37,238 nucleotides of DNA from sequence record SRR2962707_3290, one strand, 5' to 3'. The notes under the pieces are model-generated. The model did no database searches. It saw only the letters and a program-made list of their open reading frames with translations, and was not told where the DNA came from. Of this stretch, positions 1,232-25,987 are shown piece after piece; the stretch's first letter is position 1, and the number at the start of each line of letters is the position of its first letter. The position numbers and the translations under genes were made by a program.

Positions 1232-1272
1232 CAATGATATGTCAAAGGCGAACCGCAAAGAGGAGACCTAGG

Positions 1273-3686: not shown

Positions 3687-3694
3687 CTCGAACT

Positions 3695-3729: not shown

Positions 3730-3741
3730 CAAGGAAACACC

Positions 3742-5457: not shown

Positions 5458-5476
5458 TGAACGGTCCAACACATCC

Positions 5477-6553: not shown

Positions 6554-6563
6554 TCGCGGGTCG

Positions 6564-7166
6564 CTATTTGTAGGTGTAGCCGAAAGACAGGTCGAACGCT
6601 GTTTCGGACAGCGGGTGGTTCTGGACAACAGCGTTCTTGAGCCACAACCGCCCATGAACTTGCGTGGACGCGAAGTCCGCTTCATGCTCGAAATGGGCCT
6701 GATTGGCCCACAGGCCGCCCAAAAGCTCGGCGCCGGTAAACTCGATCGGGGCCTTTATCCGCACAGCGTCGAAGGCAAAATTGCCGTAGCTGGTGATGGC
6801 CGAGAAGTCCCCGCCAGCATCGAGGTGCGCGCCATCGAAACGGGCAATGCCGCGAAACTCGGCACCCGAAAAAACAGCGGGCCCGGCAAAGCGGCTGCCA
6901 TCGAAGCGGGCATCATTGAGAAACATGGAGCGGATGAAATCGGTCGCGTCATCGAACCTCACCCCGGTGAACCAGCTCAACCCCTCCAGCCGTGCGCCGC
7001 TGAAATCGACTGGCGCGCGAAAGCGCGTTCCGCTCAGATCGAACCCGGACAGCACGCATCCGGAAAGATCGAGCGGCTCCGCGATATCGAGGTCGCGAAG
7101 ATCATGGGCTTCGCCGTGGCGCCATGGCGTGAGCAGGCGTTCGCGGATATCGGCGGCGGATGTCAT
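6564..7166 (-). CDS. Pentapeptide-repeat (beta-helix) protein
   Basis: About 11-residue periodic F-x-G-A-x-F repeats (DFSGARL, RFDGSRF, VFSGAEF, RFDGAHL, EFTGAEL); ATGA overlap with the flavodoxin stop. Confidence 0.8.
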   Translation of the reverse strand: MTSAADIRERLLTPWRHGEAHDLRDLDIAEPLDLSGCVLSGFDLSGTRFRAPVDFSGARLEGLSWFTGVRFDDATDFIRSMFLNDARFDGSRFAGPAVFSGAEFRGIARFDGAHLDAGGDFSAITSYGNFAFDAVRIKAPIEFTGAELLGGLWANQAHFEHEADFASTQVHGRLWLKNAVVQNHPLSETAFDLSFGYTYK

Positions 7167-7627
7167 GCTGCCTCCTCGCGACGCGCCTCCATCTGGCGCA
7201 CGACGTCTTCCGCCCACGGCAACGCCAAATCCTCGGGCATATCGCTGCCCGAGGCGTCGTGGGTGATGCGCTCGCCGACCTGTTGCGCGCCGGCCGAGGT
7301 CATCAACTCTTCGAGGCGCTTGCCACCGAAGTTGTAGGTTTCGGGATATTCGCTATCGCCCATGCCGAACACCGCGAAGGTGATAGACGAGAGATCGGGC
7401 TGCGCGTCGGCCATCTTTTCGCCGAACGGGATGGCCGAAGCGGGCAAGTCCCCATCGCCATATGTCGAGGTGACGAGAATGTAGAAATTGTCGGCGTCGA
7501 ACGCGTCGGGTGCGAAATCGCTCAAATTGGTCACCTCCACCTCGTGGTCGGCAAGGTGAGCGGCGATGTCTTCGGCCAACATTTCGGCATTGCCGGTTTC
7601 GGTTCCGTAGAGGATGGCGATCTTCAT
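7163..7627 (-). CDS. Short-chain flavodoxin (MioC/cindoxin-like)
   Basis: FMN loops YGTETGNAE, TSTYGDGD, GMGDSEY; very acidic; TGATG overlap with the reductase. Confidence 0.92.
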   Translation of the reverse strand: MKIAILYGTETGNAEMLAEDIAAHLADHEVEVTNLSDFAPDAFDADNFYILVTSTYGDGDLPASAIPFGEKMADAQPDLSSITFAVFGMGDSEYPETYNFGGKRLEELMTSAGAQQVGERITHDASGSDMPEDLALPWAEDVVRQMEARREEAA

Positions 7628-8847
7628 CACTGCATTCCTTTCTGGCGTGCAAGGTCGAGCATCTGGTTGCGGCCGCGAATCTTGATGCGGCACCGGTCGG
7701 CTGGGCAGTCGGTGCGCTCGGCGGCATCGATGCGCTGCCAGCCGTGATAGTCGGTGGCGTGGGGTACTAGCTGAGCAAGGCCATCGCGGCCGGGCCGCGC
7801 TGACCGGACGGAAGCCAGGGCAGCGGCAATGCGGGCGGCGACGGCCTGGGCGTCGGCGCGATTTTCGGGAATGGTGCCGCGAGGCCCGCGGCGGAACCAG
7901 CCGGTTGCATAAAGACCGGGCTCGATGAACCCATCTTCGGAAGCTTCGGGCGAGGGGACATCCTCACTGCCGGCAAAGCCGATGGCGGTCAAAAGACTGT
8001 CGCACGGCAAGACAAGCGTTTCTCCCGAACCGTCAGTCGCCGTGAAATGCGCCTCTTGAAGCTGTTGGTCGCCGGTCAGCCTGGCTGGTGTCCAGCCAAA
8101 GCGGAAGGTTATGGTTTTTTGCGCATCCTGGGGATCATGGCCGTCTATGGCGGCAAGTGCCTCGACGACTTTTCCCTCTCCGGCGGCTGAGACGACCTTT
8201 ATGCGGGCATCGGTCAGCTTGGCGAGCTCGCGCAGCATGACGGGATCGAATTTCGCCACACCAGCCGGGGAACGGCCGATGATGTCGATGCTCTCCACAC
8301 TGGCGCTGCGAAAGCCATTAAGATGGTGGCCGCCCAGATCGGAGCCTTCGAACTCGCCATCGACTTTGGCAAGGATGCGGACCAGATCGATGGCGACATT
8401 GCCATTACCGATAATGACCGCCTTGCGACCTAGTCCGATCGCGTCATTTTCAGTGTCGGGATGGTCGTTCCAATACCGGGTAATGCGTCCCGCGCCGATC
8501 ACGCCGGGAAGGTCCTCGCCCTCGATACCCAAGGCGCGATCCTGCGACAGGCCAGTGGCCAGGACCACAGCGTCATATTGCGCGCGCAGATCGGCGAGTG
8601 CGATGTCGCGCCCCAGGGCGACATTGCCAAAAAAGCCCACGCCGCTGCGCTCGAAGAGACGTTCGAACTGACGTGTCACGGTCTTGGTGCCCTGATGGTC
8701 CGGGGCAACGCCATATCGGATCAAGCCGTAAGGGACCGGCAGACGGTCGATGATATCGATGCAGGCTTCGGGCAGCGCCTTGCCGAGAGCTTGTGCTGTG
8801 TAACAGCCCGACGGGCCGGCGCCGACGATGGCGATGGACGGCATCAT
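7627..8847 (-). CDS. Flavodoxin/ferredoxin-NADP+ reductase, adrenodoxin reductase (FprA) family
   Basis: IAIVGAGPSG, GLIRYGVAPDH, IIGNGNVAID, GWFRRGPRGTI; ATGA overlap with the ALDH stop. Confidence 0.9.
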   Translation of the reverse strand: MMPSIAIVGAGPSGCYTAQALGKALPEACIDIIDRLPVPYGLIRYGVAPDHQGTKTVTRQFERLFERSGVGFFGNVALGRDIALADLRAQYDAVVLATGLSQDRALGIEGEDLPGVIGAGRITRYWNDHPDTENDAIGLGRKAVIIGNGNVAIDLVRILAKVDGEFEGSDLGGHHLNGFRSASVESIDIIGRSPAGVAKFDPVMLRELAKLTDARIKVVSAAGEGKVVEALAAIDGHDPQDAQKTITFRFGWTPARLTGDQQLQEAHFTATDGSGETLVLPCDSLLTAIGFAGSEDVPSPEASEDGFIEPGLYATGWFRRGPRGTIPENRADAQAVAARIAAALASVRSARPGRDGLAQLVPHATDYHGWQRIDAAERTDCPADRCRIKIRGRNQMLDLARQKGMQ

Positions 8848-10343
8848 GCACCCCCGTCCGGCCAGCGCGCCCATGGGTGGGGCTTGCCGGTCAGATCAAC
8901 GTAAACCGATTTCTGGGCCATATAGGCGCGGATGCCGTCCCTGCCTTTTTCGCGTCCGGTGCCGGAATCCTTTTCGCCGCCAAAGGGTGTCGAGACGGAA
9001 AACTGCTTGTAGGTGTTGACCCAGACGGTTCCGCTGGTAATGGCGCGGGCAATGCGCCAGGCCTTGGGGAAATCGCGGGTCCAGACGCCACAGGCCAGCC
9101 CGTAATCATTGTCGTTGGATTGGGCGATCAATTCGGCTTCGTCATCGAACGGCAGCACGCACAGGACCGGACCGAATATCTCCTGACGGCAGATTTCTGC
9201 GTCGTTGGTCACGCCGGCGAGTATGGTGGGCAGATAATAGGCGCCCTTGGCGTACTGATCGCCGTGGGGTATCGCGCCGCCGCAAAGGATCTCGGCACCA
9301 GCCTCGACCGCCGCCGCCACTTGGCTGGCCACAGCGTCGCGGTGATCGAAATGAACGAGCGGGGCCACTTGCGTGCGCTCGTCGAATGGGTCGCCAACCA
9401 CCAGTGCCTTGGTCGCCTCGACAAGGCGCGCAACAAAACTGTCGTAGATCGAGCGCTCGACGAACAGGCGCGAGCCGGCGATGCAGCTTTGGCCACTCGA
9501 CGAAAAAACGCCGAACAGAACGCCGGCGATGGCCAGGTCGATATCGGCATCTGCAAAGACGATGGTGGGGGACTTGCCGCCGAGTTCGAGCGAAATCGGC
9601 ATCAGCTTTTCCGCTGCCTGTCGCGCCAGCATACGGCCCGTTTCAGTGCCGCCGGTAAAGCTGACCCGCGAAATCGCACGATGCTCGACCAGCAGATTGC
9701 CCACCTCGCGGCCGGCGCCCGGGAGAACCGAAAACAGTCCTTTGGGCAGACCGGCCGCCTCGATGATGCGCGCCAGTTCGAGCGAAACCAGCGGAGACCA
9801 AGATGCAGGCTTGAGCAGCACTGCATTGCCCGCTGCAAGTGCGGGCGCCACCTTCTGGGCATCCGATGCAATCGGGGAGTTCCACGGCGTGATCGCCGCG
9901 ACAAGTCCCAGCGGCTCGTGGATCGAGAGAGAAAGATAATCGCCACGCGGCGCCGTCAGCGCATCATCGAGGCTCTCCAGAGCGCCCGCATAATAGCGGA
10001 ACGTACCCGCGGCCGATGCGACAAGCGCCGTCGTCTCCCGCAGCGTCTTGCCGGTGTCGCGCGTCTGGATATGGGCAATGCGAGCAGCGTTGTTTTCGAT
10101 GCCTTCGGCAATGCGATAGAGGTAGCGGGCGCGTTCATGGGGCTTGAGATTGCGCCAGGCCGGATCGGCCTGCGCCCGAAGCGCCCGCTCTATGGCCCGC
10201 TCGCCATCGGTCCGGCTTGCACCGTTGATGACACGGTTGACCGATCCGTCGGCCGAAAAGATCGAGGCGATCTCCGCACCGGTGCCCTTTTCCCAGCTTC
10301 CGCCGATGAAAAGCTCGGCGGGCGGCAGTTCGAAATGGGTCAT
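8844..10343 (-). CDS. NAD(P)-dependent aldehyde dehydrogenase
   Basis: ITPWN, FTGGTETG, LELGGKSP, catalytic Cys in GQSCIAGSR, EIFGPV, PFGGEKDSG. Confidence 0.95.
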   Translation of the reverse strand: MTHFELPPAELFIGGSWEKGTGAEIASIFSADGSVNRVINGASRTDGERAIERALRAQADPAWRNLKPHERARYLYRIAEGIENNAARIAHIQTRDTGKTLRETTALVASAAGTFRYYAGALESLDDALTAPRGDYLSLSIHEPLGLVAAITPWNSPIASDAQKVAPALAAGNAVLLKPASWSPLVSLELARIIEAAGLPKGLFSVLPGAGREVGNLLVEHRAISRVSFTGGTETGRMLARQAAEKLMPISLELGGKSPTIVFADADIDLAIAGVLFGVFSSSGQSCIAGSRLFVERSIYDSFVARLVEATKALVVGDPFDERTQVAPLVHFDHRDAVASQVAAAVEAGAEILCGGAIPHGDQYAKGAYYLPTILAGVTNDAEICRQEIFGPVLCVLPFDDEAELIAQSNDNDYGLACGVWTRDFPKAWRIARAITSGTVWVNTYKQFSVSTPFGGEKDSGTGREKGRDGIRAYMAQKSVYVDLTGKPHPWARWPDGGA

Positions 10344-11152
10344 ATAGCCTGCTCCCGACAGCGGTTGAAGATTTCGCGTGCGACCGAATAGACGGTGGTG
10401 ACCGAGGTCTTGGGATTGTCCGGGGACGGCTTACCTTCGATCCTTACAGTGAATTCGGCGGCTGCCGAGCGGACGCTGTATTCGTGTACATTGCCGCTTA
10501 CGCCGGGGTCGGCAACAAGGCGCACCCCGGTCTTTTCGAACCCCAGCCCGGCAAGCGCCAGGGTTGCGGCGACATTGGCGTTCTTGGGGTATTGAATGGC
10601 CGCCTCGCGCGCATTCCCCGAAAAAATGACGGTTTCGACCGCGAGCGCATTGAGGTCGTGCATCTTATCGGCGGGGGTGCCTTTCCAGGCTCCTGGAGGC
10701 TTGCGTCCGGTATAACTCACGGCCTCTATCCCTGATGGCTTGAGGGCCGAGAGGACATCGATGCCGCCAATAGCGCCAGCGGGCAGGATGAACCGGGTGG
10801 ATCCGGCGCGCGCCGCGTCCAGCACCTCTTCATGCAAGGGCTGATCGGCCAGCGAGCCGATCGAGACGATGACCGTCTCGATCCCGGCGCGCAGTACGGC
10901 GGTCGCGTGCTGGCGGACGCCCTCATGGCCGGCGCATTCGACGACGAGATCAGGCATGGCGACAATCAACGCCCTCGTCTCTGCAACAACCTGCCCCTGG
11001 CCGTCGAAATCCCTGGCCAGCCGTGCCCGCGTTTCGCCCACATGGTCGGGCGTGCAAAGCACTGTGACCTTGGAGGGCTTCGCGCCTTCGTTGGCGAGTA
11101 TGCCCATCAGGGTGTGGGCAATGGTGCCGTAGCCGATCAATCCCAGATGCAT
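10340..11152 (-). CDS. nadX: L-aspartate dehydrogenase family protein
   Basis: GLIGYGTIA, VVECAGH, GAIGGID, GRKPP, YPKNANVAA, NVHE, NPKTS; alternative TTG start at 11161. Confidence 0.88.
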   Translation of the reverse strand: MHLGLIGYGTIAHTLMGILANEGAKPSKVTVLCTPDHVGETRARLARDFDGQGQVVAETRALIVAMPDLVVECAGHEGVRQHATAVLRAGIETVIVSIGSLADQPLHEEVLDAARAGSTRFILPAGAIGGIDVLSALKPSGIEAVSYTGRKPPGAWKGTPADKMHDLNALAVETVIFSGNAREAAIQYPKNANVAATLALAGLGFEKTGVRLVADPGVSGNVHEYSVRSAAAEFTVRIEGKPSPDNPKTSVTTVYSVAREIFNRCREQAI

Positions 11153-11157
11153 GCCGA

Positions 11158-12831
11158 TCAAACCTTGTTGCCGGCAGCGCCCGCCGGAGGGCCTGAAAAA
11201 CTCTCGGCAAACGGACCGATGGCGATCATGTCCACTTCGATAAGCTGGGGACCTTCGGCGGCCAGCGCGGCATCAAGGACACCAGCAAACTCGGAAACGG
11301 CGCCAACCTTGTGGTGCGGCATGCCGATTGCAGCGCAATGGGTGGCAAAATCGGGGGTGTGCAGGGCCGAATAGTAATGACGGCTATCGTACTGGGCGTC
11401 CTGGATGTTGCGGATGACGCCATAGGCCTGGTCGTTCATCAGCACGTAAACGAGCGGCGCTTTCTCCTCGACTGCGGTGATCATTTCGGCGATCCCGAGC
11501 TGGGTACCTCCGTCACCGAGCAGCGTGATCGCCTTGGCGGATTTGGACGCTATTGCCGCGCCGATGCCCATTGCAACGCCCTGGCCGATGCCGCCGCCCA
11601 GCGCATGCACGCCGTGACAGGGCTCGGCAATCTTGACGTAACGGTTGCCGAACGTTGAGTTCGAGATCGTTACGTCGCGCACCCAGGGATGCCCGCCCGG
11701 TGTCACCCGCTCGAGCAGAGCGTCGGCGATGGTGCTGTACGGTCCCATGGCCGCGCGCATCGTGCCCTCCCCGCGGGCGCGGGTGTTGGCAATGTCGAAG
11801 ACGAGGTTGGGATCGACCGAGAGCTTTTCCGGCAGGCGGTCGAGCAGGCGTTGCAGCGTGTCGGCTGCATCGCCGTGAACGAAAAGATCCACCGGATAGT
11901 TGCGGCCGCCCTGATAAGCGTCGGCATCGATCTGGATAAGGGGACGCGGCAAACGCATAGTGTTGTTGAGCGTCTCGTTGCCGCGCAGCCTTGAGCCGAC
12001 GACGATCATCAGGTCGATGGTTTCGTACAGCGCCTGGCTCTCGGGCGCCATATTGAAGGCGCCCAGATTGGCCGGATTGTCCTCCGAGACCGTGGCGCGG
12101 CCATTTGTGGAGGTGACCGCTGCAAAGCCGCGTTCCACGAGTTCTGTAGCTTGCCTGCTTGCGTTGCGGGCGCCCCCGCCCAACCAGATCATCGGACGCC
12201 GGGCGCCGATAACGAGCTGGGCCAGTTCGTCGATGACGGCATCGCTGGCCAGTGGGTTCTGCGGCGAAAGGGCAAAAGCGCGCGTCGAAGGCGGCGCTGC
12301 CATACGCTGGACGTCAACGGGGATTTCAAGGCTCACCGGGCCCGTGGGCGCGCTGATGGCGGCGTTGATGGCGGCGGTCAGCGTTCCAATGGCGCTCTTT
12401 GCGTCCCACAACCGATAATAGGCCTTGGAAATACCCTTGAGCATGTCGGGCTGGCGCGGAACATCGTGGATCGGCGCCCTGTCGCGGTCCATGAACTGGG
12501 TATCGACGGTTGCCGTGATGTGAAGCAGCGACGTGCCGGCGGTCAACGCTTCAACCTGCGCGCCGGCGGCATTGCCCGCTGCGGTACCCGTCGAAGTCAT
12601 CACAACGCCAAGTTTGCCCGAAACGCGGGCGTAGGCATCGGCCATGTTCATGGCGCCGGCCTCGCCGCGCGCCGGAACAAAACGCACGCGGCCCTGACGC
12701 GCCAGCGCATCCAGGATCGGCATGTTGTGGATGGAGATAACCCCGAAGATCACCTCGACGCCGATGTCGGCGAGATAGGCGGCAATGAAATCACCGACGG
12801 TCTCGTGGCGTGTGACTTGTTCCAGTTTCAT
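11158..12831 (-). CDS. Thiamine diphosphate-dependent enzyme (decarboxylase/ALS-like superfamily)
   Basis: Conserved Glu in RGEAGAMNMADAYAR; ThDP motif GDGG...MNDQAYG; alternative start at 12843. Confidence 0.9.
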   Translation of the reverse strand: MKLEQVTRHETVGDFIAAYLADIGVEVIFGVISIHNMPILDALARQGRVRFVPARGEAGAMNMADAYARVSGKLGVVMTSTGTAAGNAAGAQVEALTAGTSLLHITATVDTQFMDRDRAPIHDVPRQPDMLKGISKAYYRLWDAKSAIGTLTAAINAAISAPTGPVSLEIPVDVQRMAAPPSTRAFALSPQNPLASDAVIDELAQLVIGARRPMIWLGGGARNASRQATELVERGFAAVTSTNGRATVSEDNPANLGAFNMAPESQALYETIDLMIVVGSRLRGNETLNNTMRLPRPLIQIDADAYQGGRNYPVDLFVHGDAADTLQRLLDRLPEKLSVDPNLVFDIANTRARGEGTMRAAMGPYSTIADALLERVTPGGHPWVRDVTISNSTFGNRYVKIAEPCHGVHALGGGIGQGVAMGIGAAIASKSAKAITLLGDGGTQLGIAEMITAVEEKAPLVYVLMNDQAYGVIRNIQDAQYDSRHYYSALHTPDFATHCAAIGMPHHKVGAVSEFAGVLDAALAAEGPQLIEVDMIAIGPFAESFSGPPAGAAGNKV

Positions 12832-12852
12832 AATGGCTTCCATTGACTGGTA

Positions 12853-13641
12853 TCAGATGTGACGGGCGAGACCGCCCGAAACATCGAGTTGCGCGCCTGT
12901 GATGTAGCTGGCGGCATGTGAGCCCAAAAAGGCGATTGCGGCTGCGGCTTCGCTTGGGTCGCCCAGGCGCCCGAGCGGGATGCCCTTCTTGCGGGCCAGA
13001 TTGCCGTACCACTCCTCCCGGCTCATAGACTGGTCCTCGCGTTCGGCGAAACGGCGCGTCCATTGGCCAGAGCCAACCAGGCCGAGCAGAACGGAATTGA
13101 CGCGCACCTCGGGTGCCAACTCGAGACTGAGAGATTTGAGCAGGTTCTGCACCCCGGCACGGGCCGATGAGGTGCAGACCATGTGCGGCTCGGGCTGATA
13201 GGCCAGCAGCGAATTGACAGCGACGATGGCCCCTTTGGACTGCCGGAGCATGGGCACGAAAGCGCGGATCGGATAGATTTGGCTGAACATTTTGAGTTCG
13301 TACTCGGCCCGCCATGCCTCGTCTGTCGTTTCCTCAAACGTCGAGATGCGGCCCTGTCCGGCATTGTTGACCAGAAGATCGCATCGTCCAAAACTGGCTT
13401 CGACATCCGCCGCGAATGCGTTGACGGCATCGGAATCGAGCACCGAGAAAGCGCGGGAAATTATCCGGTCGGCGCCGTGATCGCGCGCCAGCACCGAGAC
13501 GACGTCCTTGAGGCGTCCTTCACCGCGGGCGCAAAGTGCGACGCGGGCGCCCTGTGAAAGCAGGAGCTCGACAGTGGAAAGGCCGATGCCCGACGATCCG
13601 CCGGTCACCACCGCCACCCGTGCTTCGTAAGGCAGCGTCAT
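12853..13641 (-). CDS. SDR oxidoreductase with non-canonical active site
   Basis: TGGSSGIG, NNAG, VRVNSV, ASYITG; YxxxK position reads TSSAR. Confidence 0.88.
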   Translation of the reverse strand: MTLPYEARVAVVTGGSSGIGLSTVELLLSQGARVALCARGEGRLKDVVSVLARDHGADRIISRAFSVLDSDAVNAFAADVEASFGRCDLLVNNAGQGRISTFEETTDEAWRAEYELKMFSQIYPIRAFVPMLRQSKGAIVAVNSLLAYQPEPHMVCTSSARAGVQNLLKSLSLELAPEVRVNSVLLGLVGSGQWTRRFAEREDQSMSREEWYGNLARKKGIPLGRLGDPSEAAAAIAFLGSHAASYITGAQLDVSGGLARHI

Positions 13642-14558
13642 GGCTGGGTTCCTTTAAGCTCGGGAAAGCCGGGATCGGGGCGGCCCTGCATGACGGCGCG
13701 CTGGGCGCTGGTCGGAGGGCCGGCGGTCATCCACTGATCCATCTTCTCTGGCACGTCGCGCGGCCAAACCTGAGCTTCGTGCGTGTGCTCGTCGATCTGC
13801 TGGATTTCCGAGGTGAATTCGATCACGAATCCCGACGGAGAGACATAGTAAGCGAAAGGATTGTCGCCCGGACCATGGCGTCCCGGTCCCCAGGTGGGAT
13901 GCAGACCCTTTTCCTTCATACGGCCGATGGAGCGCATGAATTCGTTGATCGAGGGTAACTCGAATGCAACGTGATTGACCGATGCGTAGTGGCCGCGCAC
14001 AAGCGCGATGGAGTGATGGTCGGTGGCGCAGCGCAGAAAGACCATCTGGTCCGCCGAATAGTCGGAAACGCGGAAACCGAGCACGTCCACGTACCATTGT
14101 TCCACGCCGTCCATGTCGCCGCTGTTGAGCACGACATGGCTGACCTTGCGCGGACGGGCCCACTCTTCCTTGGCCTCTGCGGCTTCCGCGCCGGTGCGAA
14201 AGCGCAGGCGACGCAGGTCGGGATCGAGCACTTCAAAGCCGTATCCGCCGGCAAAATCGTCGAACTCGGCAGGCTCGCTCAGGGCCGTCGCGCCCTTGGC
14301 AACAACCTGGCGATGGAGCGCGTCCATCGAGGCCCGGTCGGGCATCGAGAAATGCACGTATTCGATGCCGTACACCGGACCATCCTTGAGGCCGTACACA
14401 AACGGCTCATCGCCGGTGCCCCGGAAATAGACGGCGCCGTCCTCTTCCCTAGCGATGGTCAGGCCCCAGTTGTTTTCATAAAAACCCTTGGTGGCGGTAA
14501 TGCCCGGCGCACGCATGACGATGCCACGCAGGGCACCAACGCGAATCGGTTCGCTCAT
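13638..14558 (-). CDS. VOC-fold type I extradiol ring-cleavage dioxygenase
   Basis: Two VOC modules; metal and catalytic residues in SHVVL, DHHS, NHVAFE, GRHGPGDNPFAYYVSPSGFVIEF. Confidence 0.85.
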   Translation of the reverse strand: MSEPIRVGALRGIVMRAPGITATKGFYENNWGLTIAREEDGAVYFRGTGDEPFVYGLKDGPVYGIEYVHFSMPDRASMDALHRQVVAKGATALSEPAEFDDFAGGYGFEVLDPDLRRLRFRTGAEAAEAKEEWARPRKVSHVVLNSGDMDGVEQWYVDVLGFRVSDYSADQMVFLRCATDHHSIALVRGHYASVNHVAFELPSINEFMRSIGRMKEKGLHPTWGPGRHGPGDNPFAYYVSPSGFVIEFTSEIQQIDEHTHEAQVWPRDVPEKMDQWMTAGPPTSAQRAVMQGRPDPGFPELKGTQP

Positions 14559-16152: not shown

Positions 16153-17189
16153 TGGGCCGCTACCTGGGCCAGTTCGGCTTCAACCTGCTCCTTGGCGGCG
16201 CGCGTCAGAATCTGGCGGATCCGGCTGACGCCAAGATCGTGCTGGTAGAGCATTTCGCGCTTCCGGGCATCGTCTGGCATGCCTTCGAGCATGACGCGAT
16301 CCTGCTCGAGCACGTTCCAGTGACGCTCCTCGAGCTCGGCGCGATAGAGGAAGCGCCAGGATTCGCGGGCGATACCCTCGACCTTGCGCATGCGCCAGAA
16401 AAAGACCTTGCAGCTATGCTCGTCGATCGGTGTCACGAAACCCACGATACGCATATTGCCGCCCGGACCTGCTGCCGGAGGATAGGGAATGTCGAGGAAA
16501 CAATAGCTGTTGCCGGGATGAACTGCGAACTCGGCCCAATCGAAATTGTCGCCGACCTGACCGACACGCGTCACGTGAAAGCCATGCTCGGTCTTGTCGA
16601 GCTTCATCAGATCCTGTTTGGAGCCGTAAGCCAGCGTGAAGCTCTCGGAGTGCAGATAGCACCCGTGCATCGGGTCAGCGAGGTTGTCGAGGGCATAGCG
16701 GTAGTTGGTTTCCCAGATGGCCGTGCACAAAAACCCCGCCCAGGCGTCGTCGGCGAATTCGGGCGGTAGAACCAGTTCCGGCGGTTCCGGCTGGTTGACC
16801 GAAGGCATATAGACAAAGACTGCGTCATTGGCCTCGCGCACATGGAAATTGTTCAGCGCCTTCCGGCCCTCAAGCGCGCATTCGGGCATGGCAGGAACAC
16901 GGACCACGACGCCATCGCCGTCGACGACCACCCCGTGATAGCGGCAGCCAATATTGCCTTCGTGGATTTCGCCGTAAGACAAGGGAGCGCCACGGTGAGG
17001 GCAGAAATCGTCAACTGCGTTGATCTTCGCGTCCTTGCCGCGCCAGAGCACGATTTTCTGGCCCAGGAGCTTGGCGCCATAGGGACGGGAGGCTTTGACC
17101 TCGACCGACTTGGCCACCGGATACCACTGGCCCTGTAAACCGGAATTGACCCGGGATTCGATGAGCGCCTTCTTGTCGACGACTGTCAT
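16149..17189 (-). CDS. Rieske non-heme iron oxygenase, alpha subunit (VanA/TsaM-like size, no beta subunit in window)
   Basis: Rieske CPH...CRYH; mononuclear Fe motif NLADPMHGCYLH; distal Asp in EQD; 346 aa. Confidence 0.92.
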   Translation of the reverse strand: MTVVDKKALIESRVNSGLQGQWYPVAKSVEVKASRPYGAKLLGQKIVLWRGKDAKINAVDDFCPHRGAPLSYGEIHEGNIGCRYHGVVVDGDGVVVRVPAMPECALEGRKALNNFHVREANDAVFVYMPSVNQPEPPELVLPPEFADDAWAGFLCTAIWETNYRYALDNLADPMHGCYLHSESFTLAYGSKQDLMKLDKTEHGFHVTRVGQVGDNFDWAEFAVHPGNSYCFLDIPYPPAAGPGGNMRIVGFVTPIDEHSCKVFFWRMRKVEGIARESWRFLYRAELEERHWNVLEQDRVMLEGMPDDARKREMLYQHDLGVSRIRQILTRAAKEQVEAELAQVAAQ

Positions 17190-17255
17190 GTGTTCGCTCC
17201 AGACTGTGAGGGAGTTCCAAAGCGGGAGGGACCGACGGCCCCTCCCCGGGGCTTG

Positions 17256-17825
17256 TTAGCCGGCGACCTTGTTTTTCGCGGGCCGCGAGATTTTGGAAAC
17301 CGGATGATCCTCGGGATATGTCGGGGTCACCGGCTTGGGATTGCCGATCATCACGCACATCAGGGCTTCTTCGATGCCCTCATTGCGCAGGCCGCGATAA
17401 AGACCGGCAGGCACCGAGATGATGTCGCGCTCGGCCAGGACGGTTTCGACAAGCTCGCCCTTGTGCTCGATAAAGAGGCGGATTTTGTTCCCCTTGAGGA
17501 TGAAGAACACTTCCTCGGCGTCACGGTGAATGTGGAGCGGACCCTCGCAGCCGGCAGGCAGCACCATGGTGGAGAAGGTGAAGTTTTCGGCCGGAACCAC
17601 GTTCTCGTCGTCGGTGATGCCGGTTGCGCCAGTGCCGATGTAGCGCATCTGGGCACGGCGGTAGATAGGATCGTAATCGGCTTGGAATTTCAGGGCATCC
17701 CAATCGATCGTCCGGGTTTCGTAGCGGGCGACGCGACTTTCAATCCACTCGGAAAGCGACTTGCCTTCGGGAATCATCACGTCATCGGGCTCGATCGACG
17801 GGAATTTCTTTGGCGCTACAGACAT
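17256..17825 (-). CDS. Cupin domain protein
   Basis: GPLHIHRDAEEVFFILKG and DIISVPAGLYR cupin motifs; ATG at 17825 with AGGAGA RBS. Confidence 0.85.
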   Translation of the reverse strand: MSVAPKKFPSIEPDDVMIPEGKSLSEWIESRVARYETRTIDWDALKFQADYDPIYRRAQMRYIGTGATGITDDENVVPAENFTFSTMVLPAGCEGPLHIHRDAEEVFFILKGNKIRLFIEHKGELVETVLAERDIISVPAGLYRGLRNEGIEEALMCVMIGNPKPVTPTYPEDHPVSKISRPAKNKVAG

Positions 17826-17998
17826 CAATGTCTCCTGTGCTGACGGTTCGGAAAGGTTTGAAGGAAAAAGCGGGTGAGGCCCGGGGGTGTGCAGCGAGCC
17901 GAGCGGGCACGGGCTGGCGCAAGCCATTCCGTCAATCCCTTTTCACGCGTCTCTCTGACGATCGAAAACATCGAACGAACCCCTTTTCCGTGCCATAC

Positions 17999-18051
17999 TG
18001 TTCAAATATACACGTTGTGTTCATAATTACGCATAAGCTAATCTCTGTCAA
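17999..18051 (-). promoter_or_regulatory. Promoter/operator of the catabolic operon (copy 1)
   Basis: TTGACA (18051-18046)-N17-AATTAT; tandem TGTTCA boxes at 17999 and 18018; 33/36 identity to copy 2. Confidence 0.75.
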
Positions 18052-18104
18052 GCGGCGCGCATTGCCCGTGCACCGGCTATGGATTATGAAAAAGGAAAAG
18101 ACGT

Positions 18105-18935
18105 ATGGGTGGAGTTGCCCGAGTGACCGACGATATGACCGAGATCGAAGCCGAAAGCGCACAGGGCCCGTCCTATTCTGTGCCCCCCGTTCACCGCGCT
18201 TTTCGGCTGCTCCGGCACATCGCCGCGGGCGGGCGCTGCCGCAATGCGGCCGCCACGGCCCGCGAGTTGGGCATCAACAGAACGACGCTGATACGCCTCC
18301 TGCATACGCTCGAAGAGGAGGGAATCATCGAATCCGATGATGACGGCGCGAGCTGGCAGTTGGGCGTGGGGATGATTTCCCTCGCTGCGGATGCGCTCAA
18401 GTCCCGCGACGTGACGCGGGTTGCGCAGCCCGTTATGGCAAGGCTTGCCAGCGAGCTGCACCTGTCCATCCATCTGGGCGTGCTCGACGGACGCGACGTC
18501 GTCTATATGTTGCGCGAAACACCCAATTCGCACCTGATCAGCAATATTCGTGAGGGATCGCGCCTGCCGGCCCACGCCACCACCATCGGCCGTATCCTCC
18601 TGGCCTATATGCCGGAAAAACAGCTGCTCGATCTCTACAGGGACGCCGACCTTGAGGCCCATACCGCCAAGACGTCGACCACGTTGACCCAGCTCATCAT
18701 GCAGATCGGTGAAGACCGCAAGCACGGCATCGCCTGGAGCAAGGGCAATTTCGAGCCGGGAATCGGCTCCTGTGCGGCCGCAATTTTCGACCACCGCGCT
18801 CGTCCCATAGCCGGTATCAACGTTACGGGACCCGAAGAGCAGTTCAGCGCCTACAGCAACAATGCCCAGCATATCGAGGGCGCCATCAAGGCAGCTGCCG
18901 CGGAAATTTCCAGGGGCCTGGGCTACCAGGGTTAG
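18105..18935 (+). CDS. IclR family transcriptional regulator
   Basis: SVPPVHRAFRLL, RTTLIRLLHTL, GSRLPAHATTIGRILLA, GIGSCAAAI. Confidence 0.93.
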   Translation: MGGVARVTDDMTEIEAESAQGPSYSVPPVHRAFRLLRHIAAGGRCRNAAATARELGINRTTLIRLLHTLEEEGIIESDDDGASWQLGVGMISLAADALKSRDVTRVAQPVMARLASELHLSIHLGVLDGRDVVYMLRETPNSHLISNIREGSRLPAHATTIGRILLAYMPEKQLLDLYRDADLEAHTAKTSTTLTQLIMQIGEDRKHGIAWSKGNFEPGIGSCAAAIFDHRARPIAGINVTGPEEQFSAYSNNAQHIEGAIKAAAAEISRGLGYQG

Positions 18936-19036
18936 CCCCGCGAACCTTCAATAAAATCCAGTCGATAGCGCGCGCCCGGCACTCTCCATAGTGCCGGCGT
19001 TGCTGCTTTTGCGAGCACGACCGTCCACAGGTCGCC

Positions 19037-19089
19037 TTGACTTCGTTGTGACGATGCGTAATTATGAACACTACGTTGATATTTGAACA
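19037..19089 (+). promoter_or_regulatory. Promoter/operator of the transporter-monooxygenase operon (copy 2)
   Basis: TTGACT (19037-19042)-N17-AATTAT; 19054-19089 is the reverse complement of 17999-18034 with 3 differences. Confidence 0.75.
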
Positions 19090-19112
19090 CATCGGACGCA
19101 GAGGGGAACCGC

Positions 19113-19415
19113 ATGGATGTTTTCAAGGACCGGCTCTCGCAGAGGGCCAAGGACACCACGCGTGCGGAACTGGCGCACCAGTCCCTTGGCCGCAACCTGA
19201 CGGGAAGCGAAAAGGCCCTGGCGGTCGCGCTGATGGACATTATGGCGGCCCCGCAACACGACTACGCGCAGATCGCCGCCGAAATGACCAAGCGCGGCAT
19301 CACAGCCCCGGCCTCGGGCCGGACCGACTGGGACGCGGCGCTCCTCGAAAAGGAGTTGAGCACCCTCAACAAAAATCTGGACGAGGCATATGCGGAAAAC
19401 GGCTATGGCGCTTGA
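19113..19415 (+). CDS. Small (100 aa) helical protein resembling recombinase-like HTH domain proteins
   Basis: GAGGGG RBS; 'YAQIAAEMTKRGITAPASGRTDWDAALL' resembles the recombinase DNA-binding pattern IA..L...G...P.G..W; overlaps the ATPase start. Confidence 0.65.
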   Translation: MDVFKDRLSQRAKDTTRAELAHQSLGRNLTGSEKALAVALMDIMAAPQHDYAQIAAEMTKRGITAPASGRTDWDAALLEKELSTLNKNLDEAYAENGYGA

Positions 19416-20181
19416 GTTCCGCGGGGTCGAAAAGCAGTTCGGAAACGACAAGTCCGGCACCGAGGTCCTGACTGCGGTCAAGGACATCAACTTTACGGTC
19501 AAGCGCGGAGAGTTCGTGTCGGTGGTTGGCCCCTCGGGCTGCGGCAAGAGCACGATTCTGAGCATGACGGCCGGGCTCTATAAGCCCACAAAAGGCGAGG
19601 TGCTGGTGAGCGGGGAGACAGTTGTCGGCCCCAACTCGCACGTAGGTTTCATGCTCCAGAAAGACCTGCTGCTGCCCTGGCGTTCCATCGTCAAGAACGT
19701 GGAATTCGGGCTCGAGGCCAGGGGCGTTCCGGCCAGAGCGCGCCGCGAGCGCGCCATGGCCGAACTCGAACGCTGTCACCTCAAAGGCTTCGAGAACCAT
19801 TATCCCTACCAGCTGTCGGGCGGAATGCGGCAGCGCGCTGCCCTGGCCCGCACGTTGGCGATCGACCCCGACATCATCCTGCTCGATGAGCCATTCTCCG
19901 CTCTCGACGCCCAGACCAAGCTGCTGATCCAGAACAGCTTTGCCAAGACCATCCAGGATGCGGGCATCACCACGCTGCTGATTACCCACGACCTGTCGGA
20001 AGCCGTCATCATGTCCGACAGGGTGTTGGTCCTGTCCGAGCGGCCCGGCACCATCATTCACGAGCTTTCTGTCGATATCCCCGACAGAGGACAACCCCTG
20101 GCCCGGCGGCAGGTGCCGCAGGTCCACGGTTATGCTGCGCAGATTTTCGATCTGCTCAAACTCAATGAGCGAGCCGCCTGA
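19405..20181 (+). CDS. NitT/TauT-type ABC ATP-binding protein
   Basis: GPSGCGKS, LLPWRS, LSGGMRQR, LLDEPFSALD. Confidence 0.93.
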   Translation: MALEFRGVEKQFGNDKSGTEVLTAVKDINFTVKRGEFVSVVGPSGCGKSTILSMTAGLYKPTKGEVLVSGETVVGPNSHVGFMLQKDLLLPWRSIVKNVEFGLEARGVPARARRERAMAELERCHLKGFENHYPYQLSGGMRQRAALARTLAIDPDIILLDEPFSALDAQTKLLIQNSFAKTIQDAGITTLLITHDLSEAVIMSDRVLVLSERPGTIIHELSVDIPDRGQPLARRQVPQVHGYAAQIFDLLKLNERAA

Positions 20182-20215
20182 GGGGGTGGACGCAAAATAA
20201 AAGGAAGGACCATCA

Positions 20216-21193
20216 ATGAACCGCGCCTCACTTTCGCTGCTGCTGGCCGGCAGCATCGCCCTTTCGGCAAGTGCCGTCCAAGGGCAGGAGAGCTTGACCT
20301 ACCTCTTCCCGGCACCGGACTTTCTCCCCGCCTTCGCGCCCTTCCAGCTGGCGCTCCACAAAGGCTACTACGAGGAAGAAGGGCTAGACGTCGAGTTCCG
20401 CGTCGGCCAGGGCGGTGCGGACGTCGCCACCCAGATCGCCGTCGGCAATGTGGACATGGGCGGCGGCATGGGCGACACGGCCATGATCGTGCGCCCCAAC
20501 GGGCTTGAAGTGCGCGGTGTCGCGCTGCTCGGTGGCAAGGGGCTGACCCACATCGCCTGGCGCAACGACAGCGGCATCGAAAGCGTCGCCGATCTCGAAG
20601 GCGAGTCCATCGCCGTGATCAGCTTTCAGGACACCGCCTATTACAACCTGCTTGCCGTGCTGGCCGGCGAGGGCATTGGCCGTCCCGATGCCGACATTCA
20701 GGCGCTCGGTTCAGGCGGGCTTATCCAGGCCATGATCGCCGACGGCGTGCAGGCCATGTCGGGCGTGCCCGAATGGATCGTGAGCATCCAGGATGCCGGC
20801 GTGGACCTGACAGTCATGCCTGTGAGCGATCTGTTCCCGGCGCAGCCGCAGGCCATCATTGCGTCCGATCAGTTCATCGCGGAACACCCCGACCAGGCCG
20901 CGGGCTTCGTGCGTGCGACGCTGCGTGCAATCGAAGACATCGTTGCCGATCCCGCGGCCGCCGCGCAGGAATATGTGGGCTTCGTGGACCAGCATGCCGA
21001 GAACGTCGAGCAGATCGAGCGCGTCATGCGGTTCTACGTCGAGAGCGTCTATGCCGAGATGGATGGGCTGCCGCGCGGCGCGTTCAACGAGGAGCAGCTC
21101 CTCGAAATCCAGGATTTCTATATGGCCAACGACATCATCACCGAAGCGGTGCCGATCGAGGACGTCTATACCAATCAGTTCGTGACCGAATAG
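20216..21193 (+). CDS. NMT1/THI5/SsuA-type ABC substrate-binding protein
   Basis: Signal peptide; 'ALHKGYYEEEGLDVEF', C-terminal YTNQFV; AAGGA RBS. Confidence 0.88.
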   Translation: MNRASLSLLLAGSIALSASAVQGQESLTYLFPAPDFLPAFAPFQLALHKGYYEEEGLDVEFRVGQGGADVATQIAVGNVDMGGGMGDTAMIVRPNGLEVRGVALLGGKGLTHIAWRNDSGIESVADLEGESIAVISFQDTAYYNLLAVLAGEGIGRPDADIQALGSGGLIQAMIADGVQAMSGVPEWIVSIQDAGVDLTVMPVSDLFPAQPQAIIASDQFIAEHPDQAAGFVRATLRAIEDIVADPAAAAQEYVGFVDQHAENVEQIERVMRFYVESVYAEMDGLPRGAFNEEQLLEIQDFYMANDIITEAVPIEDVYTNQFVTE

Positions 21194-21206
21194 CAGACCC
21201 TGCGCT

Positions 21207-21237
21207 GTCGCGGCCTTGCCATCGGCAGGGCCGCGGC
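21207..21237 (+). other. Intergenic stem-loop after SBP gene
   Basis: GCGGCCTTGCC-ATC-GGCAGGGCCGC stem, no U tract. Confidence 0.5.
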
Positions 21238-21284
21238 CTTCGGGCGCGATGCGCCCATCCTCACCTGTTTCAAGGGCAGCAAAA

Positions 21285-22097
21285 ATGAGTTCCACCGCCG
21301 TTGACGCCCCCGTATCAAGCGCGCGCCCCGCTTTCATGCAGCCGCATGTACTGATTGGGCTGGCCATTTTGGCTGTCGTGCTGCTGATCTGGGAATTTTT
21401 GCCGCCCGCGATTGGCGTGCCCCGCTTCATCATCCCAACAATCAGCGACATGGTCGCAGAACTGGGCCGGATGTACCGGCGCGAAGACCTGATCGCCAAC
21501 ATCGCATCGACGGCCCTCTATACAGTGCTCGGCTTTGCCATCGGCTCGCTGCTCGGCGCCGTGATGGGGTATCTTCTGGGGTTGTCGAGCTTCTGGGAAA
21601 AGGTGCTCTCCCCCTACATTCTGGCCCTCCAGATCGCGCCAAAGGTGGCGTTTGCGCCGCTGTTCATCATGTGGTTCGGCTACAATGCAACGCCAAAACT
21701 TCTGGTGACGGTGCTGATCGTCTTCTTCCCGGTACTGGTCAATGTGCTGGCGGCCATGAAGACCGTCGATCGCGACATGGTCAATCTGGCCCGCGCCTAC
21801 AATCTGAGCCGGTGGCAGATCTTCCTCAAGGTCGAGTTCCCCTCGACCCTCCCAAACCTTCTCGCAGGGCTGCGGATTTCTTCGACCTTGGCAGTGATCG
21901 GGGTTACCGTCGGCGAACTGGTGGGCGGCAATACGGGGCTGGGTTTCCTGATCGCTTATGGCGGCGGGCAGGCCAATGCAGCAATGGTGTTCAACGCCAT
22001 CATCCTGCTCACCCTTATCGGCATCGCGCTCTACAGCGTCCTGGCCTGGGCCGAGGAGCGTCTGCTCCACTACATTCCCACTTCGCACACCTCGTGA
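21285..22097 (+). CDS. NitT/TauT-type ABC permease
   Basis: PKVAFAPLFIMWFG, FFPV, GELVGGNTGLG. Confidence 0.92.
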   Translation: MSSTAVDAPVSSARPAFMQPHVLIGLAILAVVLLIWEFLPPAIGVPRFIIPTISDMVAELGRMYRREDLIANIASTALYTVLGFAIGSLLGAVMGYLLGLSSFWEKVLSPYILALQIAPKVAFAPLFIMWFGYNATPKLLVTVLIVFFPVLVNVLAAMKTVDRDMVNLARAYNLSRWQIFLKVEFPSTLPNLLAGLRISSTLAVIGVTVGELVGGNTGLGFLIAYGGGQANAAMVFNAIILLTLIGIALYSVLAWAEERLLHYIPTSHTS

Positions 22098-22137
22098 ACG
22101 GGCGGCCAGCCGCCAAAGCATCAAGAAGACCAAGACA

Positions 22138-23271
22138 ATGGATCAATTTGAAATTGCCATCTGCGGTGGCGGCGTAGGCGGTCTGGCCTGCGCGCTGGCG
22201 CTGATCAAAGCCGGGCACAAGGTAACGGTATTTGAACGCGCCGAACAGTTTCTGCGCATCGGCGCCGACGTCAATCTGACGCCCAATGCCGTCAAGGCAC
22301 TGGACGGGCTCGGGATCGGTGAGGCGTTGCGCAAAACCGCTGCCCGCCCTGCTTACCGCATCAGCCGCACCTGGGACACCGGCGAAGAAACCTCGCGCCT
22401 GCCTATGAGCAAAGCGGCGGAGGAAAAATACGGAGCTCCCCAACTTACCATCCACCGTGGCGACTTGTTGCAGGCGATGGAAGCCGCGATCGACCCGGCC
22501 GCCATTCGGCTCGGACGCCAGGTGGTTTCGGTCGAAACCGGGGGCGAACGGCCGGCTGTCGTATTCGCAGACGGAAAAACCGAGAGCTTTGATCTGGTCA
22601 TCGGCGCCGATGGCATTCATTCGGCCGTCCGCACGAGCCTGTTCGGAGCCGACGCCCCCGAATTTACCGGCCTTGTCTCCTATCGCGCCGTCATAGAGAG
22701 CAAGGATGTGGACGTCCCCAATCTCGATTGTTTCACCAAATGGTGGGGTGCGACCCCGGACATGCAGGTCGTCACCTTCCCGCTGTTGCGCGGTGAAGAG
22801 CTTTTCATCTTCGCTACGACCTCACAGCCGGAATGGACGGCTGAAAGCTGGACAATGCCGGGCGATGTTGAAGAACTGCGGGCCATCTACGCAGGCTTCC
22901 ATCCTGAAGTGCAGCAGATCCTTGCCGCGTGCACCAGCGTAACCAAATCGGCGCTTTACGTGCGCCAGCCATTCACGAACTGGAGCCGCGGCGGCGTGAC
23001 GATCCTCGGGGACGCCGCACACCCCATGGTGCCGTTCATGGCCCAGGGCGCCTGCATGGCCATCGAGGACGCGATCGTCCTCACGCGATCGCTGCAGGGC
23101 GCGTCCCTGGCCGAAATTCCGCTGCGGCTCAATGTTTACGAGCAATTGCGCAAGCCCCGCACCAGCCAGGTGCAGGAAGGCTCCCGGGCCAACAACTGGC
23201 TCAAGGGCCAGGGCAACGCAGACTGGGTTTACAGTTACGATGCCTGGGGGCTGGCCATTCCAGCGGCCTGA
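22138..23271 (+). CDS. Group A FAD-dependent monooxygenase (salicylate hydroxylase / 6-hydroxynicotinate 3-monooxygenase family)
   Basis: GGGVGG, GADGIHS (DG motif), LGDAAHPMVPFMAQGACMAIED (GD motif). Confidence 0.9.
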   Translation: MDQFEIAICGGGVGGLACALALIKAGHKVTVFERAEQFLRIGADVNLTPNAVKALDGLGIGEALRKTAARPAYRISRTWDTGEETSRLPMSKAAEEKYGAPQLTIHRGDLLQAMEAAIDPAAIRLGRQVVSVETGGERPAVVFADGKTESFDLVIGADGIHSAVRTSLFGADAPEFTGLVSYRAVIESKDVDVPNLDCFTKWWGATPDMQVVTFPLLRGEELFIFATTSQPEWTAESWTMPGDVEELRAIYAGFHPEVQQILAACTSVTKSALYVRQPFTNWSRGGVTILGDAAHPMVPFMAQGACMAIEDAIVLTRSLQGASLAEIPLRLNVYEQLRKPRTSQVQEGSRANNWLKGQGNADWVYSYDAWGLAIPAA

Positions 23272-23284
23272 CCTCGAACTGAAT

Positions 23285-23320
23285 AAAGAAAGGCCCGGTG
23301 CATGACCGGGCCTTTTTTTG
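23285..23320. terminator. Bidirectional rho-independent terminator
   Basis: AAAGGCCCGGT-GCATG-ACCGGGCCTTTTTTT between convergent genes. Confidence 0.88.
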
Positions 23321-23326
23321 TTGACT

Positions 23327-25905: not shown

Positions 25906-25922
25906 TATTCCTACCCCTTAGT

Positions 25923-25987
25923 TGTTCCATATATGAAACACGTGTTTCTACAAGGAAACGATAGGAGGCTTGTCATGGGACTGTCAA
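25923..25987 (-). promoter_or_regulatory. Promoter with tandem palindromic operator (probably for the adjacent IclR)
   Basis: TGTTCCATATATGAAACA (25923-25940) and TGTTTCTACAAGGAAACG (25943-25960); TTGACA at 25987-25982, N18, TATCGT. Confidence 0.65.

Follow-up and report, generated by a model that had tools for sequence, protein, structure and literature searches.

A stretch of DNA of 37,238 nucleotides (nt) from sequence record SRR2962707_3290, which in its full length we call the window, carries 18 genes in two divergent units at positions 6564-23271. An earlier reading made from the sequence alone (the sequence-only reading) had proposed that these genes form an orphan pathway for an aromatic, possibly nitrogen-containing, compound. 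The locus raises the question of which compound is taken up and degraded, and by which steps. We found the cluster to be a coherent, complete, and widely conserved orphan catabolic unit. With a probability of roughly 0.45, its two operons encode the uptake and complete aerobic catabolism of a kynurenate-type quinoline-2-carboxylate, perhaps with xanthurenate as a second point of entry, where both the substrates and the steps are what we infer. A more ambitious claim is that the cluster is the missing genetic basis of kynurenate and xanthurenate catabolism, with a new opening of the pyridone ring by a cupin, recovery of the ring nitrogen as L-aspartate, and a flavodoxin-driven Rieske oxygenase with a pentapeptide-repeat companion; this claim is tentative and, taken as a whole, rather unlikely.

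Organization and conservation of the cluster

All 18 genes were recovered with Pfam and NCBIfam models where they had been placed before, with corrections to two of them. The genes for the cupin and the flavin adenine dinucleotide (FAD) monooxygenase are present, but their longest open reading frames (ORFs) were too long, and the true starts are at 17825 and 22138. The left operon has 12 genes on the minus strand, transcribed in the order cupin, Rieske oxygenase, short-chain dehydrogenase/reductase 2 (SDR2), alpha/beta hydrolase, vicinal oxygen chelate (VOC) dioxygenase, SDR1, thiamine diphosphate (ThDP) enzyme, L-aspartate dehydrogenase (AspDH) family enzyme, aldehyde dehydrogenase (ALDH), AdR/GltD-like reductase, flavodoxin, and pentapeptide-repeat protein. 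The overlaps noticed earlier in this operon were borne out: when sensible start codons are chosen, adjoining genes share 4 or 1 nt at 9 of the 11 junctions; the start of the pentapeptide gene at 7166, for example, overlaps the flavodoxin stop by 4 nt. The regulatory gene iclR is divergent from the left operon, and the right operon lies behind it on the plus strand, with a small ORF of 100 amino acids (aa), an ABC ATPase, an NMT1/THI5 binding protein, a permease, and the flavin monooxygenase.

The two operons had also been said to share a promoter block. One 36-nt block does stand before both, as an inverted-repeat pair with a 92% match, and because one copy is inverted, the block faces both operons in the same way. 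The two units are, however, separated by iclR, so that each promoter region has its own copy of the block and there is no single common intergenic region. Read in the direction of transcription, the block contains TGAACA-N13-TGAACA. In 30 of 67 loci from other genomes, this exact form precedes the first gene at a promoter position, where about 0.01 would be expected per locus by our own arithmetic.

Those loci came from a scan of species-representative genomes that gave 295 relatives of the ThDP enzyme. The best 80 of the 295 were kept, all of them from Alphaproteobacteria, mostly Rhodobacterales and Hyphomicrobiales, and 12 further loci were added from genomes of other families, including other classes of Pseudomonadota. 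Presence was counted only in loci with a length of 19 kb or more, of which there were 67; features were scored within the fetched stretch, and ORFs in GC-rich loci were called with a GC3 filter. The VOC dioxygenase (close or distant type), the hydrolase, SDR1, and the ThDP enzyme were each found in 67 of 67 loci, a count that for the ThDP enzyme holds by construction because all loci were collected through its gene. AspDH and ALDH were each present in 66 loci and the Rieske oxygenase in 54, which left 13 Rieske-less loci. A monocupin of 189 aa, as in the window, was found in 25 of the 67 and a bicupin of 315 aa in 29; no locus (0/67) had both, and 13 had neither type in the stretch covered. 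This mutual exclusivity suggests that one function is filled by either form.

The enzyme set was also found beyond the Alphaproteobacteria. Loci L104-L109, which are of the beta/gamma type, carry ALDH, AspDH, ThDP enzyme, SDR1, IclR, hydrolase, cupin, SDR2, and Rieske oxygenase. Between classes, no protein is better conserved than the cupin (61-69% identity in beta/gamma-type loci). The VOC enzyme of these loci is a distant paralogue (27-34% identity), the reductase is of the phthalate dioxygenase reductase (PDR) type, and an MFS transporter and a porin are present; the flavin monooxygenase, flavodoxin, AdR-like reductase, and pentapeptide protein were not found in them. Pfam recognized the PDR-type reductases of L105 and L107; those of further loci were identified by their resemblance to the one in L107.

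Of 18 genomes from the nearest genus, only 3 had the ThDP family above its cut-off, as did 14 of 401 sampled Pseudomonadota genomes. The G+C content of the cluster (window 6000-17000) is 62-64%, compared to about 58-59% in the flanks. This contrast and the presence of the cluster in only 3 of the 18 nearest-genus genomes are both consistent with horizontal acquisition.

Proposed route for kynurenate

The classical kynurenate ("quinoline") pathway of pseudomonads, reportedly worked out in papers from the Hayaishi laboratory, runs through a dioxygenating hydroxylase, a dihydrodiol dehydrogenase, an Fe(II) extradiol dioxygenase, an NADH reduction, a decarboxylation, and an aldehyde oxidation, and the cluster offers the same order of enzyme types. 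In the literature searched we found no genes assigned to that pathway, and it is we who infer its link to the cluster. The six enzyme types needed (hydroxylase, dihydrodiol dehydrogenase, extradiol dioxygenase, reductase, decarboxylase, and ALDH) are all present and co-conserved; family membership does not name the substrate. The predicted activities of the ThDP enzyme, an SDR, and ALDH would reproduce the classical sequence in which a side chain is reduced, decarboxylated, and oxidized.

The proposed route as far as 5-(2-carboxyethyl)-4,6-dihydroxypicolinate follows the Enzyme Commission (EC) list and KEGG map00380. Kynurenate would be imported by the NMT1-type ABC system. The Rieske oxygenase, fed from NAD(P)H by way of the reductase and the flavodoxin, would convert it to kynurenate 7,8-dihydrodiol (EC 1.14.99.2), which SDR2 would aromatize to 7,8-dihydroxykynurenate (EC 1.3.1.18). 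The VOC enzyme would then cut the 8,8a bond (EC 1.13.11.10) to give 5-(3-carboxy-3-oxopropenyl)-4,6-dihydroxypicolinate. SDR1, dependent on NAD(P)H, would reduce the 3-carboxy-3-oxopropenyl side chain, the ThDP enzyme would decarboxylate the 2-oxo-acid arm, and ALDH would oxidize the 5-(2-formylethyl)- to the 5-(2-carboxyethyl)-4,6-dihydroxypicolinate.

To our knowledge, the steps beyond this intermediate have not been described, and those proposed here would be new. The cupin, with Fe(II) held by a 2-His-1-Glu site, would cleave the C4-C5 bond (an enolized beta-dicarbonyl) of the 4-hydroxy-2-pyridone. The PcaD-like hydrolase, of amide or lactone type, would split the resulting amide to 2-oxoglutarate and iminoaspartate, and AspDH would reduce the iminoaspartate to L-aspartate or, alternatively, would aminate oxaloacetate. 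Xanthurenate (8-hydroxykynurenate) might enter through ortho-hydroxylation by the NicC-like flavin monooxygenase, acting as a xanthurenate 7-hydroxylase. The TGAACA-N13-TGAACA operator, repeated before both operons, would be the site through which IclR controls them. The scheme thus finds a task for all of the conserved enzymes and a gene for all of the proposed steps. In the literature, 5-(2'-carboxyethyl)-4,6-dihydroxypicolinate is listed under tryptophan metabolism, and a review states that A. baumannii grows on kynurenic acid.

Proposed entry module

The translation of the Rieske oxygenase has both the C-x-H...C-x-x-H cluster motif and the D-x3-D-x2-H-x4-H iron motif. The protein is an alpha subunit only; no ring-hydroxylating beta-subunit family was matched in the cluster by Pfam. 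Its neighbors in the Protein Data Bank (PDB) are distant (9ina, carbazole 1,9a-dioxygenase, phthalate-type oxygenases, and 2-oxoquinoline 8-monooxygenase) and include N-heterocycle oxygenases. Four genes follow it from locus to locus. SDR2 was present in 54 of the 54 Rieske-bearing loci, the flavodoxin in 45, the AdR/GltD-like reductase in 44, and the pentapeptide protein in 46, and none of the last three was found in any of the 13 Rieske-less loci.

We propose that the flavodoxin is the electron carrier to the Rieske oxygenase and that the AdR/GltD-like enzyme is the flavodoxin reductase. The nearest NCBIfam models of the former are MioC and flavodoxin, both below their cut-offs. The latter resembles the small subunit of glutamate synthase or adrenodoxin reductase, and its GltD-like NCBIfam matches span the N-terminal 170 residues only. 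The partner of the oxygenase here would thus be a flavodoxin with an AdR/GltD-like reductase, rather than the PDR-type reductase or the ferredoxin and reductase that are usual in its family. We know of no role on record for a pentapeptide-repeat protein in any oxygenase system.

The flavin monooxygenase is a second candidate for entry. Its best PDB match was 6-hydroxynicotinate 3-monooxygenase NicC (5eow, 294 bits), with salicylate hydroxylase (5evy) at 161 bits. It was present in 10 of the 13 Rieske-less loci and in 0 of the 9 beta/gamma-type loci (L104-L112). In the 3 Rieske-less loci in which it was not found, L110-L112, the fetched stretch has its edge at the SDR2 gene or close to it. Among cultured carriers, Chelativorans multitrophicus DSM 9103 (L012) has the cupin, VOC enzyme, and flavin monooxygenase but neither Rieske oxygenase nor SDR2; Celeribacter halophilus (L038, L060) has Rieske oxygenase and SDR2, with no flavin monooxygenase found in the stretch covered; and Nitratireductor aquimarinus (L021) carries both modules. 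Two genomes of the same genus that bear the Rieske-less form of the cluster had no Rieske homologue anywhere. A role as xanthurenate 7-hydroxylase would explain such forms. The entry logic, either Rieske oxygenase with SDR2 or flavin monooxygenase, fits a pair of substrates of which one has an aromatic H where the other has an aromatic OH.

Predicted ring cleavage and lower pathway

The VOC enzyme was earlier said to have intact His/His/Glu ligands, and the alignment upholds this: H141, H196, and E247 align with residues of homoprotocatechuate and catechol 2,3-dioxygenases (1f1r and 3hpv) that we take to be the iron ligands in those structures, which places the predicted 2-His-1-carboxylate site in the C-terminal of the two VOC modules. 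H182 and Y238 align with the conserved second-sphere His and Tyr of homoprotocatechuate 2,3-dioxygenase. The best PDB match and sole close structure was 3b59, an uncharacterized structural-genomics entry. By its type I family features, the VOC enzyme is a predicted extradiol ring-cleaving dioxygenase.

The cupin would be the second ring-opening enzyme. H98, H100, and E104 were invariant in 16 homologues, and the usual motif-2 His, the fourth ligand, is absent. The nearest enzyme of known function among its PDB sequence matches was the quercetinase QueD (E 2.4e-4), and the ESM Atlas match was named merely "cupin domain-containing protein." The 315-aa bicupin had no PDB sequence match. The presence of two oxygenases of ring-cleavage type, VOC and cupin, argues for a bicyclic substrate.

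The hydrolase scored 115.7 bits on the PcaDC model, and its best PDB match was 3-oxoadipate enol-lactonase (2xua). Membership by sequence in the clade of C-C hydrolases of meta-cleavage products was rejected, with scores of 38.9 bits on BphD (TIGR03343, cut-off 462) and 49.5 on HsaD (cut-off 400). SDR1 was well above the cut-off of NF005468 (395 bits vs 266), a model with a generic name. Likewise, the ThDP enzyme was above the cut-off of the generically named NF005470 (785 bits vs 495); its next models were PRK08266 and the AruI subfamily, 5-guanidino-2-oxopentanoate decarboxylase, on which it reached 259 bits against a cut-off of 500. Its best PDB match was BbmA (163 bits). The nearest named relatives are 2-oxo-acid decarboxylases, and we propose that the ThDP enzyme is probably one as well. 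ALDH matched no NCBIfam equivalog above its cut-off, and its second-best model was HpaE.

The sequence-only reading had stated that a standard lower pathway of meta-cleavage is missing, and the hydratase, aldolase, and acylating dehydrogenase families were indeed unmatched by any ORF scanned in the window. It had further suggested that the ring-fission product goes through the ThDP enzyme and then ALDH. That suggestion fits the present results, in which the AruI decarboxylase subfamily is, among relatives with a name, the one closest to the ThDP enzyme.

Aspartate dehydrogenase and the proposed fate of ring nitrogen

AspDH was above curated cut-offs on both NF009827 (263 bits vs 226) and NF009828 (254 bits vs 177). 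In 4 of 4 genomes of the same genus nadB was above its cut-off, and AspDH was found only in the 3 that have the cluster, beside the ThDP gene. A role in NAD biosynthesis, with AspDH replacing NadB, does not suit these genomes, since nadB is present in all 4. The hint of nitrogen in the substrate, earlier taken from the NadX-like enzyme and the THI5-type binding protein, is strengthened by this cut-off score and cluster-only occurrence and by the NicC-like flavin monooxygenase. In the kynurenate route, the N1-C2(COOH)-C3-C4 fragment of the picolinate ring equals iminoaspartate, which would be the substrate of AspDH. According to published work, AspDH activity was shown for relatives from other bacteria, and the characterized mesophilic AspDHs favor the reductive direction five- to tenfold, a preference with which the proposed reductive step would agree.

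Which substrate?

Several points weigh against kynurenate as the substrate and against single steps of the route. The sequences themselves do not point to kynurenate by name. Of the classical intermediates, only one was met by name in a paper. The end products named in classical reports are glutamate, alanine, and acetate, which match 2-oxoglutarate and aspartate only after further metabolism. No gene of the kynurenine pathway was found among the recurrent neighbors of the cluster loci. With regard to entry, SDR2 is not near the classical cis-dihydrodiol dehydrogenases, and its best NCBIfam model was pyridoxal 4-dehydrogenase, below cut-off; Rieske oxygenases, as far as we know, do not usually take their electrons from flavodoxin; and NicC-type enzymes as a rule couple decarboxylation to hydroxylation at the position para to the OH, unlike the chemistry assigned here. 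SDRs are unusual reductases of C=C bonds. Within the stretches covered, only 54 of the 67 loci showed a mono- or bicupin. The structure model of the cupin had low confidence (mean pLDDT 68.5) and a Foldseek search with it against the PDB returned generic cupins only, so that its ring-opening role rests on the conservation of metal ligands and the weak QueD match.

Other scenarios were considered. The same architecture could serve another N-heteroaromatic or amino-aromatic acid, such as a quinoline-, indole-, or pyridine-carboxylate from plants or algae, that also yields a 2-oxo-acid arm and an aspartate-type fragment. All of the family-level evidence is compatible with many such compounds, and the binding protein gives no clue to the ligand. 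Samples from phycospheres, algae, the sea, and synthetic communities contain DNA nearly identical to that of the window, and one isolate-like run has the whole stretch in a single contig; the conserved loci are from many named Alphaproteobacteria that are marine or associated with algae. The phycosphere, algal, and marine samples are rich in other algal metabolites. However, we can name no alternative compound that uses all nine conserved enzymes as economically. Two candidates were rejected on their described gene sets: the homarine hom operon (a flavoprotein pair, a peptidase, and ALDH) and the riboflavin/lumichrome lum operon (P450, xanthine oxidase, and heterocycle decarboxylase) are unlike the cluster. 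We regard another substrate as possible but doubtful.

In a second scenario, an aromatic amino acid would be degraded by attack on its ring. The Rieske oxygenase with SDR2, or the flavin monooxygenase, would turn phenylalanine or m-tyrosine into 2,3-dihydroxyphenylalanine, and after meta-cleavage the hydrolase would free aspartate, to be deaminated by AspDH, while the ThDP enzyme and ALDH would dispose of 2-oxopentenoate. The logic parallels that of Hca/Mhp, and both AspDH and the two alternative hydroxylating systems would be explained. The hydrolase, however, is PcaD-like and far from the meta-cleavage-product type, as its BphD score shows; the cupin, the best conserved protein, would be left without a role; and decarboxylation of 2-oxopent-4-enoate leads to no known route. 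This scenario is improbable.

Still less probable is an Ehrlich-type shortening of an amino acid chain by the AspDH-like enzyme, ThDP enzyme, and ALDH, followed by cleavage of the resulting aryl acid by the Rieske oxygenase, SDR2, and VOC enzyme. The trio does mirror the logic of AruH/AruI/KauB, with a ThDP enzyme nearest the AruI subfamily and an ALDH whose second-best NCBIfam model is HpaE. Nevertheless, AspDH scores above cut-off as a true aspartate dehydrogenase, and shortening aspartate would be metabolically senseless; no downstream genes of homoprotocatechuate type were found in the scanned ORFs of the window, and cupin and hydrolase would be unexplained. That the cluster is a mosaic of unrelated functions merely lying together is very improbable given the tight translational coupling, the shared operator, and the enzyme set conserved across classes, even though the transporter type and the reductase type vary between lineages.

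If kynurenate is the substrate, the cluster would provide genes for three EC numbers that have had no sequences since the 1960s and would complete the pathway below its last described intermediate. It would also explain the aspartate dehydrogenases of bacteria that already have NadB, that is, the physiological role of "non-NadB" AspDHs, and would show how bacteria consume the tryptophan products kynurenate and xanthurenate, which act as host signaling molecules. Even with the wrong substrate, the locus would be a large, conserved, regulated orphan pathway with an unusual lower part made up of a ThDP decarboxylase, ALDH, cupin, and AspDH.

Two runs from RNA libraries had contigs spanning 5500-24500, with intergenic parts and flanks included and at flat depth. 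Contigs of flat depth may come from carried-over DNA, and neither transcription nor co-induction of the operons is demonstrated by them.

Comparison with known systems

No substrate had been known for this gene set to the sequence-only reading, and that statement stands: NCBIfam names were generic even above cut-off, no characterized close homologue was among the PDB sequences, and none was found in the literature. A full-text literature search found no genes assigned to degradation of kynurenate or xanthurenate and no function for the cluster; most subscription journals and the papers of the 1960s are outside its coverage, so that a prior assignment is possible.

The nicotinate pathway (NicC, NicX, and NicD) shares with the cluster a NicC-like monooxygenase, an Fe(II) dioxygenase that opens a hydroxypyridine ring, and an alpha/beta hydrolase that acts on an N-acyl product. 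In contrast to that pathway, the cluster has no molybdenum hydroxylase, NicX-type dioxygenase, maleamate amidase, or isomerase, and ring opening is proposed to occur by a cupin on a 4-hydroxy-2-pyridone. Upper pathways of the naphthalene/biphenyl type, which lead into a meta-cleavage lower pathway, share the Rieske oxygenase, the dehydrogenase, and the type I extradiol dioxygenase. The cluster differs from them by an alpha-only Rieske oxygenase of the VanA family, by having neither hydratase-aldolase nor C-C hydrolase, and by a side chain that would be trimmed by ThDP decarboxylase and ALDH. The arginine transaminase pathway (AruH/AruI/KauB) likewise has a 2-oxo-acid decarboxylase, of a neighboring ThDP subfamily, followed by ALDH; however, its gene context differs, and the ThDP enzyme of the cluster is well below the cut-off of the AruI model.

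Characterized NadX genes such as PA3505 of P. aeruginosa had been said to sit among similar genes. We take the characterized AspDH of PAO1 to be PA3505. The claim is borne out in part by published descriptions, in which PA3504-PA3514 form a single PAO1 region that includes an SDR, a regulator, and an ABC transporter, and in which an AspDH of PAO1 is characterized. As in the cluster, AspDH would there adjoin such genes, a likeness drawn from the published description.

Transport, regulators, and neighboring genes

Table 1. Genes and sites of the cluster and its flanks, with positions in the window.
Feature	Position	Strand	Family match or remark
Pentapeptide-repeat protein, last gene of left operon	6564-7166	-	Pentapeptide_3, 84.8 bits
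MioC-like flavodoxin	7163-7630	-	Flavodoxin_1, 98.3 bits
AdR/GltD-like NAD(P)H-dependent reductase	7627-8847	-	Pyr_redox_2
NAD(P)-dependent ALDH	8844-10343	-	Aldedh, 543 bits
L-aspartate dehydrogenase family enzyme (AspDH)	10340-11161	-	Asp_DH_C and NAD_binding_3
ThDP enzyme	11158-12843	-	All three TPP domains
SDR1	12853-13641	-	adh_short_C2
Type I two-domain VOC extradiol dioxygenase (predicted)	13638-14558	-	Glyoxalase domains (Pfam)
Alpha/beta hydrolase, PcaD/esterase type	14555-15400	-	Abhydrolase_1
SDR2	15400-16152	-	adh_short_C2, 183.7 bits
VanA/phthalate-family Rieske oxygenase	16149-17189	-	Rieske and VanA_C domains (Pfam)
Monocupin, 189 aa, first gene of left operon	17256-17825	-	Cupin_2
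Operator/promoter block, copy 1	17999-18034		36 nt, upstream of cupin operon
IclR-family regulator	18105-18935	+	HTH_IclR and IclR_C
Operator/promoter block, copy 2	19054-19089		Inverted copy of 17999-18034, upstream of transporter operon
Small 100-aa ORF, first gene of right operon	19113-19415	+	Weak HTH_62 (PF20552), 24.5 bits vs cut-off 27
ABC transporter ATPase	19390-20181	+	ABC_tran; start 19390 or 19405
NMT1/THI5-family periplasmic binding protein	20216-21193	+	NMT1, 118 bits
ABC permease	21216-22097	+	BPD_transp_1
Group A flavin monooxygenase, NicC-like, last gene of right operon	22138-23271	+	FAD_binding_3
Upstream flank	361-6553		GntR/FCD regulator, M24 peptidase-like protein, ABC importer (binding protein, fused permease, ATPase)
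Second NMT1/THI5-type ABC importer	23327-27112	-	Permease, ATPase, binding protein, own IclR
Third transport unit	29199-34062	+	Two NMT1-family binding proteins, ATPase, permease, then Amidohydro_3 enzyme
Small cytochrome c	34662-35057
Flavin amine oxidase, 573 aa	35080-36801	-

The transporter of the right operon could not be given a ligand from its relatives, because the PDB neighbors of the binding protein (THI5, ThiY, and TauA) scored only 28-51 bits. The ABC ATPase matched taurine/sulfonate-type models below their cut-offs. IclR reached 150 bits on the PcaR/PcaU/PobR subfamily model, which is below its cut-off. The small HTH_62-like ORF is conserved in about 31 alphaproteobacterial loci and leads the transporter operon there; homologues of it scored 46.8 bits (L052) and 103.5 bits (L104, 15803-16114) on PF20552. 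In the distant locus L104, this protein adjoins the Rieske gene and a Rieske-type ferredoxin.

Three NMT1-type systems lie inside the 37 kb of the window. The second importer is directly behind the flavin monooxygenase gene; its binding protein is 25% and its regulator 34% identical to those of the cluster, and it was not counted within the cluster. Part of the upstream flank also adjoins the cluster in L011-L013. Near the far end of the window, the gene for the flavin amine oxidase adjoins that for the small cytochrome c.

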